Of a stretch of DNA of 42,743 bases, positions 3,133 to 42,743 are shown piece by piece. Every line of letters starts with the position of its first letter. Position 1 is the first letter of the stretch. The stretch lies in sequence record ON470579.1; one strand, written 5' to 3'. The notes beneath the pieces are model-generated. The model saw only the letters and a list, made by a program, of their open reading frames with translations, was not told the origin of the DNA and made no database searches. Origin of the DNA: Escherichia phage vB_EcoM-606R2. The position numbers were made by a program, and so were the translations under genes.

Positions 3133-3978
3133 GTGAATAAAAATCCCTGGGATATTCCAGCATGGCACGCTCTGGGCCGAGAAGCATCTTTAGTTACACA
3201 GCTCATTGGTTCTGGGGCAACAGCCATAGGTAAAGCCAATTATGCAGACAAAATAGGTGAATATTACACAGCATTTTTTGGGCTTTCTGTAGGTTTTGAG
3301 AGACTTGCTAAACTAATACTTGTTGCACACTATGCCATTGAACACAAAGGGAAAATGCCTGATGAGAATATTGTAAGAAAATTTGGACATAAGCTCATTG
3401 AATTAACCAACGAGGTTGATAGTATTTCTAAAAAAATGCAACTATCTCTGAGATATTCACGTCCTACACATAAAATTACCTACAAAATACTTGAATGTTT
3501 AGATTCCTTTGCTGATGCCCGACGGGGACGTTACGCAAATTTCTCCTCATTAAGCAGCCCCAATTTAACCAATAATGAACCTATTAATAAATGGTGGGGA
3601 GAAGTAGCCGAGAGTATCCTTGAAAAACATTATTATTATACAGTTGAACAAAGACGTGTTGAAGAAAATGCTAGGTTTATCAATGCCACTCTTTCACCGT
3701 ATACAACGGTCATGTATATGAATGAAAGTACCAACATTATGCAAGACCTTATATCAGCCTCCATCCGTACTGGACAAAATACCATTGTTCAAAAGTGGGG
3801 AAGATTCTATTCTCTTAGCATCGCTCGTTGGCTTGCCACAGTATTAGCAGAACTGTCTGATATAGCTTCTCATAAATATGGAATAATTAGTTTTTATGGC
3901 CTTAGTGAACATTGTTGCAGTTATATAGTTGAAGATAGTTTTTTAAAAAACAGAAAAATATGGCCACTTCGCCAATAG
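3133..3978 (+). CDS. hypothetical protein, AT-rich accessory gene at the prophage terminus
   Basis: 281-aa ORF with a GTG start 11 nt after AAGGA. Its composition is strongly AT-rich compared with the phage core. It sits next to the truncated invertase. Confidence 0.6.
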   Translation: MNKNPWDIPAWHALGREASLVTQLIGSGATAIGKANYADKIGEYYTAFFGLSVGFERLAKLILVAHYAIEHKGKMPDENIVRKFGHKLIELTNEVDSISKKMQLSLRYSRPTHKITYKILECLDSFADARRGRYANFSSLSSPNLTNNEPINKWWGEVAESILEKHYYYTVEQRRVEENARFINATLSPYTTVMYMNESTNIMQDLISASIRTGQNTIVQKWGRFYSLSIARWLATVLAELSDIASHKYGIISFYGLSEHCCSYIVEDSFLKNRKIWPLRQ

Positions 3979-3982
3979 TTAA

Positions 3983-4333
3983 CTAGAAAATCTGCATAAG
4001 GGGGAGAAATCCCCCACCTGTAATAACATAACTACTAAAATTAACACCTTGTTCGCACAACTCCTCCACCAGCACGACAAGATGCCGCACACTGCGCCCC
4101 AGCCGATCCAGCTTCCAGACAACCAGAGTGTCACCTGCCGATAATGTCCTGAGCAGTTTTTTCAGTCCCGGCCTTTCGGACTTTGTACCGCTTATCTTGT
4201 CTTCAAAAAACAGCTCGCATCCTGCACAGTTCAGCGCATTACGTTGTAGATCTGTGTTCTGGTCATTTGTTGACACACGTACATAGCCAATAAGCATAGT
4301 GGATCCCTCTGACAAAAGCAGGAATGATGCCAT
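3983..4333 (-). pseudogene. Hin/Gin/Pin-family serine DNA invertase, 3'-truncated
   Basis: The N-terminus MLIGYVRVSTNDQNTDLQRNAL...DRLGRS carries the serine-recombinase catalytic motif. The ORF is only 116 aa and ends in unrelated residues; the HTH DNA-binding domain is missing. Confidence 0.75.
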
Positions 4334-4722
4334 TTGCTCGTTATTTCTGCATTTTCATAAACGTTGGTTTGGGAGAAGCGGCAAAACGGAATGTGGGCAC
4401 AGGAGATAATCAGATACCGGATATGGGAGCATTCGCTTCTGGTTCGGGATGGTTCAGGCTACCAGGTGGATATATTGTTCAGTTTGGCACTTTTTCAGGA
4501 AACACGACCCGCTTTATCAGTGGACACTTCCCTATACCATTCCCTAATCAGCCGATGATTTCAGTCAGTGTTATGTCTGATGCCGTTCAGTCAGACCCGT
4601 CGAATCCTGCCCCGCAGGTTTTGTCTGTAAATTTTGAACATATCAGTAATTCAGCGTGGCGTGTGGCAACCAGTGATATCTCACAGCAATACAGATTCAG
4701 TTATATTTCGATAGGACGGTAG
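4324..4722 (+). CDS. alternative tail-fibre C-terminal variable segment (silent orientation)
   Basis: The ORF shares the crossover-site residues GLGEAAK with the expressed tail-fibre gene and is followed by an assembly gene. It would be fused to the constant N-terminal part only after inversion. Confidence 0.5.
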   Translation: MMPFARYFCIFINVGLGEAAKRNVGTGDNQIPDMGAFASGSGWFRLPGGYIVQFGTFSGNTTRFISGHFPIPFPNQPMISVSVMSDAVQSDPSNPAPQVLSVNFEHISNSAWRVATSDISQQYRFSYISIGR

Positions 4723-4724
4723 AA

Positions 4725-5165
4725 ATGCAGAAATATATTTTCAGTGCCGATAAAAATGCGTTTTTCCCTGTGGAGCTTAAAATCGCTTATCAGGAATCCG
4801 GCGAATGGCCCGATGATGGAATCGAAATTGACGACACTGTTGCTGCCGAATTTATGAAGGAAGCACCAGAAGGAAAATACAGAGGTGTCATCGACGGAAT
4901 GCCTGCATGGATTGATATTCCACCGCCAACTCATGAGGAACAAATTGCCGCAGCCGAACTGAAAAAGCAGCAATTGATTAATCAGGTCAACGAATACATA
5001 AACAGTAAGCAATGGCCTGGTAAAGCGGCGATTGGTCGCCTGAAAGGTGAGGAACTGGTGCAATATAATTTGTGGCTGGATTATCTGGACGCACTGGAAC
5101 TGGTCGATACTTCCGGTGCGCCAGATATTGAATGGCCTACGCCTCCGGCAGTTCAGGCCAGATGA
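4725..5165 (+). CDS. tail fibre assembly protein (alternative copy)
   Basis: 146-aa ORF with the conserved Tfa-type C-terminus ending WPTPPA, immediately after the alternative fibre segment. Confidence 0.7.
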   Translation: MQKYIFSADKNAFFPVELKIAYQESGEWPDDGIEIDDTVAAEFMKEAPEGKYRGVIDGMPAWIDIPPPTHEEQIAAAELKKQQLINQVNEYINSKQWPGKAAIGRLKGEELVQYNLWLDYLDALELVDTSGAPDIEWPTPPAVQAR

Positions 5166-5733
5166 CATCCGGCGCGGTGCTGGTATCTGTTGCCGTCACC
5201 GCGTCAATGTAATCCAGCACAGCGTTAAGCCGGGTTGTTTCTGCCTGCGTCAGTTTCCGCCCGGCTTGTAATTTCAGCTGAATCAGACTAATGGAAGCCA
5301 TTGCTGCATCAATCAGTGACTGGCGCTGTGCTTCTGACGCGTCTACTGCGGCGCTATGCTGTGCCTCGGTATCCGTCACCCATTTCTCACCATCCCATTT
5401 ATCGTATGGCGTTAACGGTGAAAGCGTGACATAACCATCTTTGATGGCACCGATATAATCCACTGTAACAGCTGCGCCATTTTCGATTGAGTAAACAGTC
5501 TCATTGCGATGGTCCTCTTCATGGCTCCATCCCTTACCTGTAAATACAGCCACTTTTCCCGGAATGTTTTCGCCAGGGTTAATTCCAGTGGAACAGGCGG
5601 GCATACTTACGCCAGTATTAATATATTCATCAGACCAGCCCGTATACTCAGATGTTTCAGCATCATAATAAAAACAACGCATATCGCCCGGCACTGTAGC
5701 CAGTCCATTTTCATCAAAAATTGGGGTCATCAT
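5137..5733 (-). CDS. tail fibre assembly protein
   Basis: 198-aa ORF with a Tfa-like C-terminus ending IWPELPEA, downstream of the expressed tail-fibre gene. Confidence 0.7.
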
Positions 5734-6542
5734 TTAGCCCTCACCAGAAAGTTAAATGCAATATTTCGCGGTCTGACGGCAACAAAATTCACACCATCAC
5801 CCACAGAGTTACTGGTGAAATTAAATCGTGAAAATCCTGGCTGATTTCCGGCGATACCATCATGAAAATTAATTGTGTGGCCCGCACCATCGCCTATATT
5901 CCCGGCAAACTGAGAAAAGTTTGTAGCTGCCTGCCAGCTTAATAATTCGCGACCACCGTCTGCACCTCGCCCGTCATCCCAGATACGAATGAAATCACCG
6001 CGGGCTTCAGGTAATACCAGCGAAGGAAACACTTTCGCCAGCACAGGGTAATCAGAGGCAGAAAATTTCGCCCCGTTAAACTTCAAAAACACCATACCGG
6101 ACCAGCTGTCGATGACAGAATTTGGCATTGCAGCGGACGGCCAGAAGAACGGAACGCCAATAGCTGGGGCACCTTCTCCCAAACCAAGGTTTTCGAGAGC
6201 TGTTTTCACCGTGCCGTCCGATTTGATATCGCCAAACGGATTCTTGCGGCTCAGGTATTCAACAGCAAACCCCGATCCCAGCAATTCAACAAAACCGGGC
6301 AGATCACCATTATCAAGCACATCCCGTTGCGTTTTATCACTTACAAACTGGGCCAGAGCTGCAGCAATAAAGCTGGCCTGCCGAATAACCTTATTGACTT
6401 GCGCACTGGAGGCTTTCCCTGCTGTAAATCCAGATAAAAGCGCGGGCAACGCTTCCCATTCCTCCTGCGATATAACATTGGCATTTCGATCCGTTGCAAA
6501 CGCTTTAAAGTCATTTTTCGCCATCAGAGTAATACTCCCCAT
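5730..6542 (-). CDS. tail fibre protein (constant N-terminus plus variable C-terminus)
   Basis: 270-aa ORF at the end of the baseplate operon; it contains the crossover site and is followed by an assembly gene. Confidence 0.7.
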
Positions 6543-38873: not shown

Positions 38874-39635
38874 ATGCAGGAACTAACTGAAATGCCGATC
38901 AACTATCCATACCCGAGAGAATCTTTTCCTGACTTTTTGAGGGAGTGTGGGTTCACCAATTTTTCCCACGAACAGCGTGAGACTTATGACTGCTATCGTT
39001 TAACGAATGGCGTAATTGTTAACCTTTACACCACCCGGACCATTCAGTTTCAAGGGAACCCTCAAGAACGTCCCAATGTTGAAACTGCAATAATGTCCCA
39101 TTTAGGAACGCCCCCCACGGCAACACCACTAGCCGTAGAACAGCCATCTGAGCTTCCCAAAAAGATATTCATTGTTCACGGCCATGACCATACTGCAAAG
39201 GAACAACTTGAGCTAATCCTTCATAAACTTGGATTACCAGACCATTTCATTTTGCAGAATACGGGAGGGACTGGACTCACCATTATTGAAGAGCTTGAAC
39301 GTGAAATTGGGCAAGGACAAACTGCTACTCGTTTCGGGATTGTTCTTTTGACACCTGATGATATGGGATACTCAAAGCGCGCCGGTGAAGCAGAAATCCA
39401 ACCCCGCGCAAGACAGAACGTTGTACTCGAGATGGGTATGCTTCTTTCGTCCTTAGGGCGCAGCAATGTAGCAATCCTTCAGAAACAGCACCTAGAACAG
39501 CCTTCTGATGCTAACGGGATTTTGTATCTGAATTTCAACGACCATGTACGTGAAACAGTTCCTCGTCTAGTGCAACGGTTACAAAATTCTGGTTTCGAAT
39601 TTACACAAGCTCAAATAGCTAACGCTTCCTCGTAA
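38874..39635 (+). CDS. TIR-like domain protein (COG4271 / Cap12-type TIR-like fold) with an unknown N-terminal domain
   Basis: The C-terminal region has the pattern KIFIVHGHD ... FGIVLLTPDD ... RARQNVVLEMGMLL ... PSD, recalled as typical of the TIR-like nucleotide-binding family. Not confirmed by search. Confidence 0.55.
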   Translation: MQELTEMPINYPYPRESFPDFLRECGFTNFSHEQRETYDCYRLTNGVIVNLYTTRTIQFQGNPQERPNVETAIMSHLGTPPTATPLAVEQPSELPKKIFIVHGHDHTAKEQLELILHKLGLPDHFILQNTGGTGLTIIEELEREIGQGQTATRFGIVLLTPDDMGYSKRAGEAEIQPRARQNVVLEMGMLLSSLGRSNVAILQKQHLEQPSDANGILYLNFNDHVRETVPRLVQRLQNSGFEFTQAQIANASS

Positions 39636-39680: not shown

Positions 39681-39870
39681 ATTTGGGAATAAAAACCCTA
39701 TGTCATTTAAATACCGGGACAGTCCGCTTTATTACCGGACTGCACGGGAGGCTTTGCGCCTTGAACAGTCCAGCGGGTACGACCGGGCGATGCAGGTCTG
39801 GGCCAAAGCGAACGTCGGTTTGATTTTTGTCTGATGCAGAACATGCGCGAAAAGCGTAAGGAGGTGGACG

Positions 39871-40065
39871 ATGTCTAATATCGATAATAAAGGTTGGGGG
39901 TTCCCCGCCCTGTCGAAAAAAGCACATTTCTTTAATTCGGGGGAAGCCATATCACTATGCGGAAAATGGATGTTCACAGGTATCAGGATTGACGAATGGC
40001 ATGACCATCCTGAGAACTGCGCTATCTGCATGAAGAAACGCAAAAAGCAGGAAGGCGAAAGCTAA
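39871..40065 (+). CDS. small Cys/His-rich protein (possible zinc ribbon)
   Basis: Strong ribosome-binding site AAGGAGG; stop overlaps the VRR-NUC start. Confidence 0.5.
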   Translation: MSNIDNKGWGFPALSKKAHFFNSGEAISLCGKWMFTGIRIDEWHDHPENCAICMKKRKKQEGES

Positions 40066-40349
40066 TGGCCTATGAACGTGAAAACCTAATCGAAAAGCAC
40101 CTCGTCGCTGAAGTAAAAAAGGCTGGCGGGGTTGCCTTTAAGTTCGTATCTCCCGGTCTCCGCTCGGTACCAGATCGCATTGTTCTGCTACCCGGCGGTC
40201 GCATCGTCTTTGTCGAATGCAAAGCACCAGGCAAACCACCACGACCTGATCAGTTGCGCGAGCATGAACGTCTGCGAAAACTGGGCTTTACCGTGGTAGT
40301 ACTGGATAGTAAGGAGCTTTCATGTATATTAGGCAAAAAATTACAATAG
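40065..40349 (+). CDS. VRR-NUC domain nuclease
   Basis: 94-aa ORF with the PDRIVLLPGGRIVFVECKAPG pattern characteristic of VRR-NUC as recalled. Confidence 0.65.
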   Translation: MAYERENLIEKHLVAEVKKAGGVAFKFVSPGLRSVPDRIVLLPGGRIVFVECKAPGKPPRPDQLREHERLRKLGFTVVVLDSKELSCILGKKLQ

Positions 40350-40364
40350 GAGTCTGTGTAAGCT

Positions 40365-40856
40365 ATGGCTAAGCAACAAACGAAAGAAATAAACCAAGAT
40401 GATGTAAAAGACAACAAAAATATGCCACCTCATATATGCGGCATTATTATGCCAATTGCGGACATAGAAGGTTATCCCACTGGACATTGGAGAAATGTTC
40501 ATGACATTATTTGTGAAGCATCAAATGATGCCGGATTCAAGGCAAATTTGGTAAGTTCAGATGATGATGTTGCAGTAATACAAAAACGAATTGTTCAAAA
40601 TCTTTATGAAAACCCCATAGTTGTTTGCGATATAAGTGCTCGAAACGCTAATGTAATGTTTGAATTAGGAATGCGTCTCGCATTTGACAAACCGACCGTA
40701 ATTATTAAGGACGAGCGCACTCCTTATAGCTTTGACATTTCATCAATTGAACATTTAGAGTACCCTTCGGATTTAAGATACCAATCAATCAATCAATTTA
40801 TTCAAAGAAAGACTTGCGAGCAAGATAAAAGAAACATATTTAAAGTCAGTAACTGA
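40365..40856 (+). CDS. TIR-like domain protein, N-terminal portion of a frameshift-split gene
   Basis: AT-rich ORF with the pattern PIVVCDISARNANVMFELGMRLAFDKPTVII ... PSD, parallel to the upstream TIR-like protein. The frame ends 19 codons after a (CAAT)4 tract. Confidence 0.55.
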   Translation: MAKQQTKEINQDDVKDNKNMPPHICGIIMPIADIEGYPTGHWRNVHDIICEASNDAGFKANLVSSDDDVAVIQKRIVQNLYENPIVVCDISARNANVMFELGMRLAFDKPTVIIKDERTPYSFDISSIEHLEYPSDLRYQSINQFIQRKTCEQDKRNIFKVSN

Positions 40857-41286
40857 TCCTGAATACACAACATTCCTCAAACATTTTGGCACTTTCAAAG
40901 TTGCACAACTAGACCAGAAAGAAGTATCAGAAACTGAGTATCTGGCATCTGAGATTAAAGATATCAAATCATTATTGATATCTCTTAGGGCAACAGCAAC
41001 GACAAAATCCAGATTTTTCGACTCACCGAAAAATTACTCGCAGCAGGAAATTGACAACTCTGTAGATATTATTAAAAATGGAGTTGCCAGTTATACTATA
41101 AGGAGTGAAGGATTTAGTATATCAAAATCAGCACTAGAAAAGTTACGCCAAAGACTACACAACGCAGGATTTCAAGTCGAGCAAATAGTATTGACAGGAA
41201 AAGAAGTAATTATTCATCTGTCATCACCTTTAATAAATGAAGAAGAAAATATTTTTAAAGATGCAATAGTAACAGCACTATTATAA
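40777..41286 (+). CDS. C-terminal portion of the frameshift-split gene (no ATG; open from 40777)
   Basis: A 170-codon open frame with protein-like composition. The track starts it at a TTG at 40975, but it reads continuously from the repeat tract. Confidence 0.5.
   Translation, partial: DTNQSINLFKERLASKIKETYLKSVTDPEYTTFLKHFGTFKVAQLDQKEVSETEYLASEIKDIKSLLISLRATATTKSRFFDSPKNYSQQEIDNSVDIIKNGVASYTIRSEGFSISKSALEKLRQRLHNAGFQVEQIVLTGKEVIIHLSSPLINEEENIFKDAIVTALL
40782..40797 (+). repeat. tetranucleotide repeat (CAAT)4 at the frame-switch point
   Basis: Read directly from the sequence. The +1 frame opens at 40777 and the zero frame closes at 40856. Confidence 0.9.
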
Positions 41287-41298
41287 ATAACATTTTTA

Positions 41299-41334
41299 AA
41301 ACAACAAAAGGTCTAAATTGGCCTTTTGTTGTTT
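41299..41334 (+). other. 13-bp-stem hairpin bounding the AT-rich cassette (possible terminator)
   Basis: Arms AAACAACAAAAGG and CCTTTTGTTGTTT with a 10-nt loop, immediately before the helicase ribosome-binding site. Confidence 0.4.
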
Positions 41335-41348
41335 AGGAGCCATATTAT

Positions 41349-42743
41349 ATGCCCCCAAAATATATACCTCGCCCCTACCAAGTTCTCATTATCAACCACG
41401 AAACCGAAACCCTGCGCGGCAACATCTGGGCGGGGATGGGAATGGGTAAAACCGTGGCAACGCTCACTGCGCTGGAAGATCTCTTTATGGCAGGGGCAGA
41501 AACATGCCCCGCACTGGTCCTCGCGCCGCTGCGCGTGGCTGCCAGCACATGGCCGGATGAAGCACTGAAGTGGGGACATTTGCGCAATATCGAGGTGCAG
41601 CCAATTATTGGTAATGCCAAAGCGCGCTCTATGGCGCTGACGAACAGCAACGCAAGCGTGTTCACCATCAACTACGATAACCTTGTCTGGCTGATTGAAG
41701 AATTGGGAGAACGATGGCCGTTCGGTACTGTCATTCCAGATGAAAGCACCCGGCTAAAATCCTTCCGGCTGCGCGGTGGTGGTAAGCGCGCGGCGGCGCT
41801 GGGCAAAGTGGCGCATAAGTATGTCCGGCGCTGGATAAATCTCACCGGTACGCCAGCACCGAACGGCCTGGTAGATTTGTGGGGACAATCGTGGTTTGTG
41901 GACCAGGGGCAACGTCTCGGGCGCACTTACGGCGCGTTTACCTCACGCTGGTTCAACTCGATACAGTTTCCGGGGCAGAGCTGGACCAAACTGGAGCCTT
42001 TTGCTCACTCACAGGGTGAAATACAGCGAGCGTTAGCCGATGTAACCCTCTCGCTGGATGCGGCCGACTGGTTCGATATCAAAGACCCCATCCATAACGT
42101 AATCCGCGTGGATATGCCACCGAAGGCCCGTCAGCAGTATCGTGAAATGGAAAAGGAAATGTTCCTCGAGCTGAATGGCGAAGGCATCGAAGCACCGAAC
42201 GCCGCGGCAAAGACACTGAAGTGTCTGCAAATCGCCAGCGGCGCAGTATACACAGATGACACCGGAAGTTGGTCAGAACTGCATGACACCAAACTACAGG
42301 CGCTGGACAGCATACTGACCGAAGCAGCTGGCGCACCTGTGCTGGTTGCTTATCACTGGAAACACGATCTTGAACGCTTGCTTAAAGCATTCCCTCGCGG
42401 TCGTCACCTCGACCAGGATCCACAGACACTGCGCGACTGGAATTCCGGAAAGATTCCTGTTCTCTTTGCACACCCAGCCAGCGCGGGCCACGGCCTGAAC
42501 ATGCAGGACGGCGGAAATATACTGGTATTTTTCTCACACTGGTGGGACCTGGAGCAATATCAGCAAATTATTGAACGTATCGGCCCCACCAGGCAGATAC
42601 AGGCCGGACACAATCGTCCGGTATTTATTCACCACATTATTGCTGCCGACACTATGGATGAAATGGTGATGGAGCGGCGCAACTCAAAACGAACAGTGCA
42701 GGACATCCTGCTCGATGCCATGAAAAAGAGAGGTATAGCATGA
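41349..42743 (+). CDS. SNF2/DEAD-like DNA helicase
   Basis: Motif I GMGKT, a PRPYQ-type Q motif, motif II DEST and C-terminal helicase motifs; ribosome-binding site AGGAG. Confidence 0.75.
   Translation: MPPKYIPRPYQVLIINHETETLRGNIWAGMGMGKTVATLTALEDLFMAGAETCPALVLAPLRVAASTWPDEALKWGHLRNIEVQPIIGNAKARSMALTNSNASVFTINYDNLVWLIEELGERWPFGTVIPDESTRLKSFRLRGGGKRAAALGKVAHKYVRRWINLTGTPAPNGLVDLWGQSWFVDQGQRLGRTYGAFTSRWFNSIQFPGQSWTKLEPFAHSQGEIQRALADVTLSLDAADWFDIKDPIHNVIRVDMPPKARQQYREMEKEMFLELNGEGIEAPNAAAKTLKCLQIASGAVYTDDTGSWSELHDTKLQALDSILTEAAGAPVLVAYHWKHDLERLLKAFPRGRHLDQDPQTLRDWNSGKIPVLFAHPASAGHGLNMQDGGNILVFFSHWWDLEQYQQIIERIGPTRQIQAGHNRPVFIHHIIAADTMDEMVMERRNSKRTVQDILLDAMKKRGIA

Follow-up and report, generated by a model that had tools for sequence, protein, structure and literature searches.

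Does a reading frame that breaks exactly at a short tandem repeat mark a genetic switch, or is it the trace of an ordinary mutation? This question is raised by a gene near the 3' end of the 42,743-nucleotide sequence of Escherichia phage vB_EcoM-606R2 (ON470579.1; the whole of this stretch is called the window below), where two reading frames meet at four tandem CAAT units (CAATCAATCAATCAAT). The original prediction, made from the letters of this DNA, was that the two frames belong to a single gene, that the repeat may act as a slipped-strand phase-variation switch of a defense or exclusion function, and that a programmed ribosomal frameshift is the alternative.

Architecture of the split gene

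The features of the locus and of its immediate flanks are collected in Table 1. The description of the locus in the original prediction proved accurate, as there is one gene, its break falls exactly at (CAAT)4 and all of the coordinates given for it are correct. The 5' ORF encodes a 163-aa product in which residues 1-143 are authentic and are followed by a 20-aa out-of-frame tail, QFIQRKTCEQDKRNIFKVSN, while the +1 frame is open from 40777 to a TAA at 41284-41286, with the portion downstream of the tract having the same sequence as the intact allele. The number of units sets the frame, with three units giving a 305-aa ORF and four units giving the 163-aa truncation; zero or six units would also be in frame. 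Specifically, removal of one CAAT fuses both frames into a single 305-aa ORF with the junction ...YQSINLFKERLASKIKETY..., and addition of two units gives a single 309-aa ORF, both of which agree with what had been predicted. In the intact allele (CAAT)3 is read as the codons CAA-TCA-ATC-AAT that encode Q140-S-I-N143. The 305-aa gene is annotated as one hypothetical protein both in Escherichia phage vB_EcoM-611R5 (ON470588.1; protein URC09077.1) and in RefSeq chromosomes (WP_001551510.1).

That both frames read like real protein was likewise borne out. A match to phrog_3634 covers residues 24-254 of the fused protein and thus runs across the junction, and a search with the fused protein returned ~4466 homologues at E-values of up to 1e-3; of these, the 120 that were listed are mostly ~280-320 aa long and come from Enterobacterales and other Gammaproteobacteria. 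The match across the junction together with these full-length homologues indicates that both halves are real protein and that they form one gene.

Just 3' of the stop codon there is a hairpin with a minimum free energy of -21 kcal/mol (z = -5.9; 0 of 200 shuffled sequences were equally stable). This stem-loop was not called by a terminator scan because it has no canonical U-tract, and it may serve the inserted module as a terminator or in stabilizing its RNA. A promoter scan gave promoter-like sites at chance level (6 versus 6.6 expected).

Table 1. Features at and around the disrupted gene (window coordinates).
Feature	Position	Strand	Remarks
VRR-NUC / PDDEXK nuclease gene	40065..40349	+	Upstream flank, left side of the variable cargo slot
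Whole disrupted gene	40365..41286	+	Prophage cargo gene in its frameshifted form; the intact 305-aa product is WP_001551510.1 / URC09077.1
5' ORF, 163 aa	40365..40856	+	Frame 0, TGA stop; product known in public data
(CAAT)4	40782..40797	.	Site of the +4 insertion; the intact allele has (CAAT)3
3' part of the gene	40798..41286	+	Corresponds to residues 144-305 of the intact product; shifted into the +1 frame in this allele
Stem-loop	41300..41336	+	Just 3' of the stop codon, inside the low-GC insert, just before the helicase ribosome-binding site
SNF2-family helicase gene	41349..42743	+	Downstream flank, right side of the slot; the window ends at its stop codon

Repeat number and other inactivating changes in relatives

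Comparison of the window with its closest relative shows that it is the reverse complement of ON470588.1 (42,739 bp) plus one extra CAAT. The two records share an identical prefix of 40,793 nt and an identical suffix of 1,946 nt, which sum to 42,739, the full length of ON470588.1. As the CAAT tract is the sole difference in 42.7 kb, it is therefore the most mutable site of this element on this timescale. At least 12 complete E. coli chromosomes also match the window over 24.9 kb with a 4-nt gap as the sole difference.

The original prediction had proposed a count of CAAT units in related prophages, and when this count was made the fused version turned out to be the overwhelming norm. The related loci that were read first consist of 2 phage records, 24 complete E. 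coli chromosomes, 4 IMG/VR contigs and 1 metagenome contig (the IMG/VR and metagenome contigs being read by a flank-and-variable-gap scan), and in all of them (31/31) the tract is (CAAT)3 and the 305-aa gene is intact. Matches in the phage records and chromosomes span 977 nt relative to the 981-nt query, with the gap located inside the tract in every locus that was read directly. A split shared with the same four units by all homologous loci, which the original prediction had linked to two independent genes or a fixed pseudogene, is thus not what the relatives carry.

We also counted exact products in a protein collection with 15 billion entries. At least 1000 contigs encode the intact 305-aa protein in exact form (three units) and 7-11 contigs encode the exact 163-aa product (four units), with none of the products predicted for 0, 1, 2, 5, 6 or 7 CAAT units present in this collection. 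The four-unit allele is therefore rare, as no more than ~1% of the contigs with this gene have it, and no other length variant was seen. The flank-and-variable-gap pattern had no match in a contig set with one genome per species because such sampling misses this prophage.

The 163-aa product is represented by URC08730.1, MCL5216174.1, HFT0648450.1 and HHQ7501799.1 among GenBank/NCBI TPA proteins, and it is also found in the Logan assemblies SRR21246332 and ERR15242874 and in NCBI GCA_051429905.1. Three of the four-unit carrier loci were read as DNA; they contain (CAAT)4 and differ from the window by no SNP. Given that the 163-aa product occurs on 7-11 contigs from independent sources, this allele is no artifact, and it is real and heritable. 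SNP comparison of the four-unit carriers over up to 5.4 kb revealed 0 SNPs, so a single origin and multiple origins are alike compatible with these sequences; several independent origins would strengthen the case for an elevated rate. Two of the three carrier contigs that were read end ~175-195 nt downstream of the tract. Furthermore, the public records of the 305-aa protein include many "partial" copies (231-300 aa) from contigs of 4-5 kb or ~30 kb, indicating that draft assemblies often break inside this low-GC gene. These breaks likely arise from low coverage of AT-rich DNA in Nextera-type libraries.

The gene is interrupted by insertion sequences as well. In strain JNEC-KY203 an IS1 is inserted after nt 122 of the 305-aa gene (777 bp including the target duplication), and this insertion yields a 47-aa product that is present on 9 contigs; in the NZ_AP045179.1 locus the IS1 copy is at 3148-3924. 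Another genome has a second IS1 after codon 32 in the opposite orientation, resulting in a 40-aa product whose tail, GDAANLLI, is the translated IS1 terminal repeat. The presence of two independent IS1 insertions indicates that this gene is dispensable and has been repeatedly knocked out, a pattern that fits relaxed selection, a cost of carriage or an AT-rich target preference of IS1.

Predicted protein and its cargo slot

The homologues carry no informative annotation other than a few that are named "RNA helicase" by their source. The AlphaFold model of the 305-aa protein (mean pLDDT 74, with 10-residue block means of 63-92 for residues 21-160) is predicted to have an N-terminal alpha/beta domain at residues 23-133, a long helix at 139-162 that begins exactly at the frameshift site, a second helix at 188-208 and a small, variable C-terminal beta-beta-alpha-beta-beta-alpha domain at 232-299. 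When the N-terminal domain was compared with the PDB by Foldseek it matched MilB, nucleoside 2'-deoxyribosyltransferases (NDT) and DNPH1/Rcl with E-values of 3e-5 to 1e-3 and probability 1.0, and all of the family members tested (116/116) matched the PADLOC TIR effector profile PDLC00733 with a best E-value of 1e-8. On this model, the N-terminal domain is predicted to be Rossmann-like, of an NDT/DNPH1/MilB- or TIR-like kind.

No family in Pfam or NCBIfam was called at cut-off, with the Pfam profiles CAP12-PCTIR_TIR and Nuc_deoxyrib_tr scoring 16.2 bits (cut-off 24.7) and 13.2 bits (cut-off 28.8), respectively, and a profile search of PDB sequences gave nothing meaningful. An hhalign comparison of the family profile with the neighboring TIR protein was dropped as homology evidence as it had a probability of only 2.5%. 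In the family alignment the Glu100 residue of ...NVMFELG... is invariant, and judging from the motif it may be equivalent to the catalytic Glu. The 163-aa product retains the complete N-terminal alpha/beta domain including Glu100 of the FELG motif.

These features suggest a predicted role as a nucleotide or NAD+ N-glycosidase-type effector. Among 76 homologue loci no partner gene was conserved outside of related phage groups, the highest count being 15 of the 76, and the gene was therefore treated as a stand-alone module. We take the intact form to be a candidate stand-alone NDT/TIR-like effector. With MilB, DNPH1/Rcl, NDT and the CAP12/Pycsar TIR effectors the family would share the predicted fold, the PADLOC TIR profile and the invariant Glu, but its helical linker and variable C-terminal domain have no identified relative.

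The disrupted gene has a GC content of 0.33-0.37 versus ~0.55 in the flanking genes, and by its composition and placement it forms a low-GC cargo module of one gene. Related prophages that share the same integration site have variable cargo in the slot flanked by the VRR-NUC nuclease and helicase genes (40350-41348); the O55:H7 DEC5E prophage has a Dcm methyltransferase and a 309-aa hypothetical gene in this slot, and the IAI1 prophage has a 265-aa hypothetical gene on the opposite strand. The prophage with the cargo gene studied here occurs for the most part in E. coli chromosomes that form a near-clonal set.

Several other features of the window were observed in its annotation and in comparison with relatives. 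A gene at 38874-39635 (+), located between the DNA polymerase and ANR regulator genes, has a 253-aa product in which the CAP12/Pycsar TIR domain is strong (Pfam E-value 2.9e-31) and which matches PDC-S35, a candidate single-gene defense system of PADLOC, with an E-value of 1.2e-108. The IAI1 prophage also has this gene; the DEC5E relative lacks it and instead has a DUF4406 gene in the vicinity. The ANR-family regulator gene at 39700-39871 (+) is a fixed pseudogene with a 40-nt deletion relative to the intact 71-aa DEC5E gene, and RefSeq flags it as "frameshifted" in all relatives checked; this pseudogene is stable and has a different origin from the CAAT allele. At ~3983-6542, a gene annotated in ON470588.1 as a DNA invertase adjoins tail-fiber and tail-fiber-assembly genes in opposed orientations. 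The arrangement resembles an invertible host-range segment of the Gin/Cin type, in which case the window would have a genuine switch at another place; the invertase, with only 104 aa, looks truncated. The window itself is a PHASTER-style cut and not a true phage genome, as positions 1 to ~4300 contain host genes annotated tadA, phosphatidylglycerophosphatase C and YfhH, and its 3' end at 42743 coincides with the helicase stop codon, leaving out the HTH gene and integrase that follow in chromosomes.

Origin of the four-unit tract

We addressed how often such tracts occur by chance with Markov simulations (n=150) of windows with the same composition. For tetranucleotide tracts with at least three units the expectation is 0.45-0.83 per window, compared with 2 observed, and for a four-unit tract it is ~0.004 per window, with none in the 150 simulations. 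The other tract of three units is (AGTC)3 at 1540-1551, inside an intact YfhH-like regulator gene, and it is unchanged in ON470588.1. It serves as an internal control in that three-unit tracts arise by chance and are stable in this window.

The CAAT tract lies mid-protein in ...YPSDLRYQSIN..., a conserved ungapped segment of the family alignment with D136, L137 and R138 being invariant and I142 at least nearly invariant. Codons at the tract position were compared in the 52 more distant IMG/VR homologue loci where this motif could be located, and in these loci the position is occupied by non-repetitive codons, also in those that retain the QSIN peptide (such as CAAAGTATTAAT and CAGTCCATAAAT). 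A CAAT tract was present in no homologue outside of this E. coli allele. The chance-level count and the non-repetitive codons of the homologues thus indicate that the ancestral (CAAT)3 is an accident of codon choice, and the four-unit tract would be a one-step slippage product of this chance three-unit tract.

We consider it probable, with good confidence, that the split is a spontaneous replication-slippage (Streisinger-type) frameshift that involves no programmed device. In this mechanism, the ancestral (CAAT)3 would gain one unit during replication, and the resulting +4 shift would stop translation after the 143 authentic and 20 aberrant residues. The conserved helical segment and the C-terminal domain would be lost and the N-terminal NDT/TIR-like domain would be kept intact. 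Reversion by loss of one unit would be possible in principle, and this, like the position of the sole difference in 42.7 kb inside the tract, counts against the reading as a plain mutation. Slippage as the means by which the CAAT was gained is suggested by analogy with known repeat hotspots, and the 163-aa allele presumably has lost function. Nothing indicates that the tract changes at a switch-like rate or that it evolved as a switch, and we see in this allele an unremarkable case of a mutational mechanism that is already known.

The most substantial alternative is that the CAAT tract is a slipped-strand phase-variation switch that usefully toggles a prophage defense or exclusion gene ON with three units and OFF with four. 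Consistent with this reading, a change in unit number flips the frame, the OFF allele exists without any other change and is present in several assemblies of different origin, and the gene is plausibly a defense-type effector, as judged from the uniform match of its family to the PADLOC TIR profile, that sits in a cargo hotspot. CAAT is moreover the classical unit of Haemophilus contingency loci (PMC2651432). However, the tract has 3-4 units versus 5-51 in the H. influenzae CAAT loci (PMC2651432), all 24 of the complete genomes have three units, and the protein collection contains no number other than the common three and the rare four. In addition, the tract is located mid-gene within a conserved motif, is missing from all homologues and, at three units, is at chance level. 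We therefore regard this switch as improbable, and the claim of the original prediction was not sustained given that the ancestral tract has three units, that only two states exist and that homologues lack the tract. More doubtful still is a low-rate reversible 3/4 switch by which lysogens would silence, and later re-awaken, a costly NDT/TIR-like effector. If this were true, then the two IS1 knockouts would be the irreversible form of the same selection, and the locus would be a minimal-length contingency locus in E. coli that resides in a defense-type gene. Even if every one of the ~1% carriers were an independent event, the rate would be orders of magnitude below that of contingency loci, a rough upper bound that rests on supposing ~1% carriers in a young, nearly SNP-free lineage, and it would be lower still if the four-unit carriers form one clade.

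The remaining readings have much smaller probabilities. Translational recoding, in which full-length protein would be regained from (CAAT)4 mRNA through either a +4 hop or a +1 ribosomal frameshift, draws on the fact that each tract triplet recurs 4 nt downstream, so that re-pairing of the peptidyl-tRNA from AAU at 40791-40793 to AAU at 40795-40797 would be expected to give the wild-type sequence. Unstimulated ribosomal hops are generally very inefficient, and our reading of 40777-40856 revealed no known +1 signal, with neither a shifty stop with an upstream Shine-Dalgarno-like element nor a homopolymer run. Furthermore, the split is a recent 4-nt insertion in an otherwise identical genome, all 76 homologous viral loci have a single ORF (240-380 aa), and the family alignment is ungapped at the junction, which with the near-uniform length of the listed homologues argues that there is no conserved frameshift. 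Recoding is thus very unlikely, and the programmed frameshift put forward in the original prediction is contradicted on the sequences compared. We give an equally small chance to the extra CAAT being a sequencing or assembly artifact of the record. The study that gave ON470588.1 consists of Illumina/SPAdes draft assemblies with PHASTER-cut prophages (bioRxiv 10.1101/2022.06.29.498070), specifically prophages predicted from UK carbapenemase-producing E. coli, and this record differs from the window at this repeat alone. The window most likely comes from this project too, judging by its boundaries, which are identical to those of ON470588.1, and by the accession URC08730.1 of the 163-aa product. 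Nevertheless, the tract of 16 nt is far shorter than an Illumina read, and the four-unit product recurs in independent runs, with (CAAT)4 seen directly in the three loci read as DNA. Two independent adjacent genes that merely resemble one have next to no probability. The 163-aa ORF is annotated as a protein by gene callers and a TTG-initiated 103-aa ORF is present at 40975-41286, but this reading is refuted by the family alignment as homologues align without a gap at the junction at the length of the fused protein, the phrog_3634 match includes both halves, and no homologue has anything corresponding to the 20-aa tail of the 5' ORF.

The probable slippage frameshift makes this locus a useful calibration case, in that a tetranucleotide tract at a frameshift mimics a contingency locus and comparison with relatives shows an ordinary slippage mutation. 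The disrupted gene also draws attention to a large unannotated family with an NDT/TIR-like domain, the intact form of which is a candidate defense effector, and it is located next to the PDC-S35 TIR gene in a prophage cargo hotspot.

Two known systems frame this interpretation. The H. influenzae CAAT loci (licA, lic2A, lic3A) have the same repeat unit, a tract located inside an ORF and a frame that shifts with unit number. These loci contain 5-51 units and vary in nearly every strain, as listed in a table of 28 loci, and they typically have >10 units and switch at ~1e-4 per generation (PMC2651432). In contrast, the CAAT tract described here hardly varies in unit number, is placed in the middle of the gene where it encodes part of a conserved motif, and is unconserved among homologues. 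The closer likeness is with the (CTGG)3 spontaneous hotspot in lacI of E. coli (Farabaugh et al., 1978), where single-unit losses or gains via replication slippage dominate the mutations recovered (PMC12606429), and which has been reproduced in P. putida (PMC3485313). Both loci have three tandem tetranucleotides in a coding region and mutants that are off by exactly one unit, with a frameshift knockout attributable to replication slippage that is reversible in principle. They differ in that the lacI hotspot is defined by measured mutation spectra and the CAAT locus is known from counts of natural alleles, and in that lacI gains or loses a unit whereas only a gain (3 to 4), and no loss (3 to 2), is seen at the CAAT locus. 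The CAAT tract would thus be a natural counterpart of the lacI (CTGG)3 hotspot, which in this case separates two deposited prophages.
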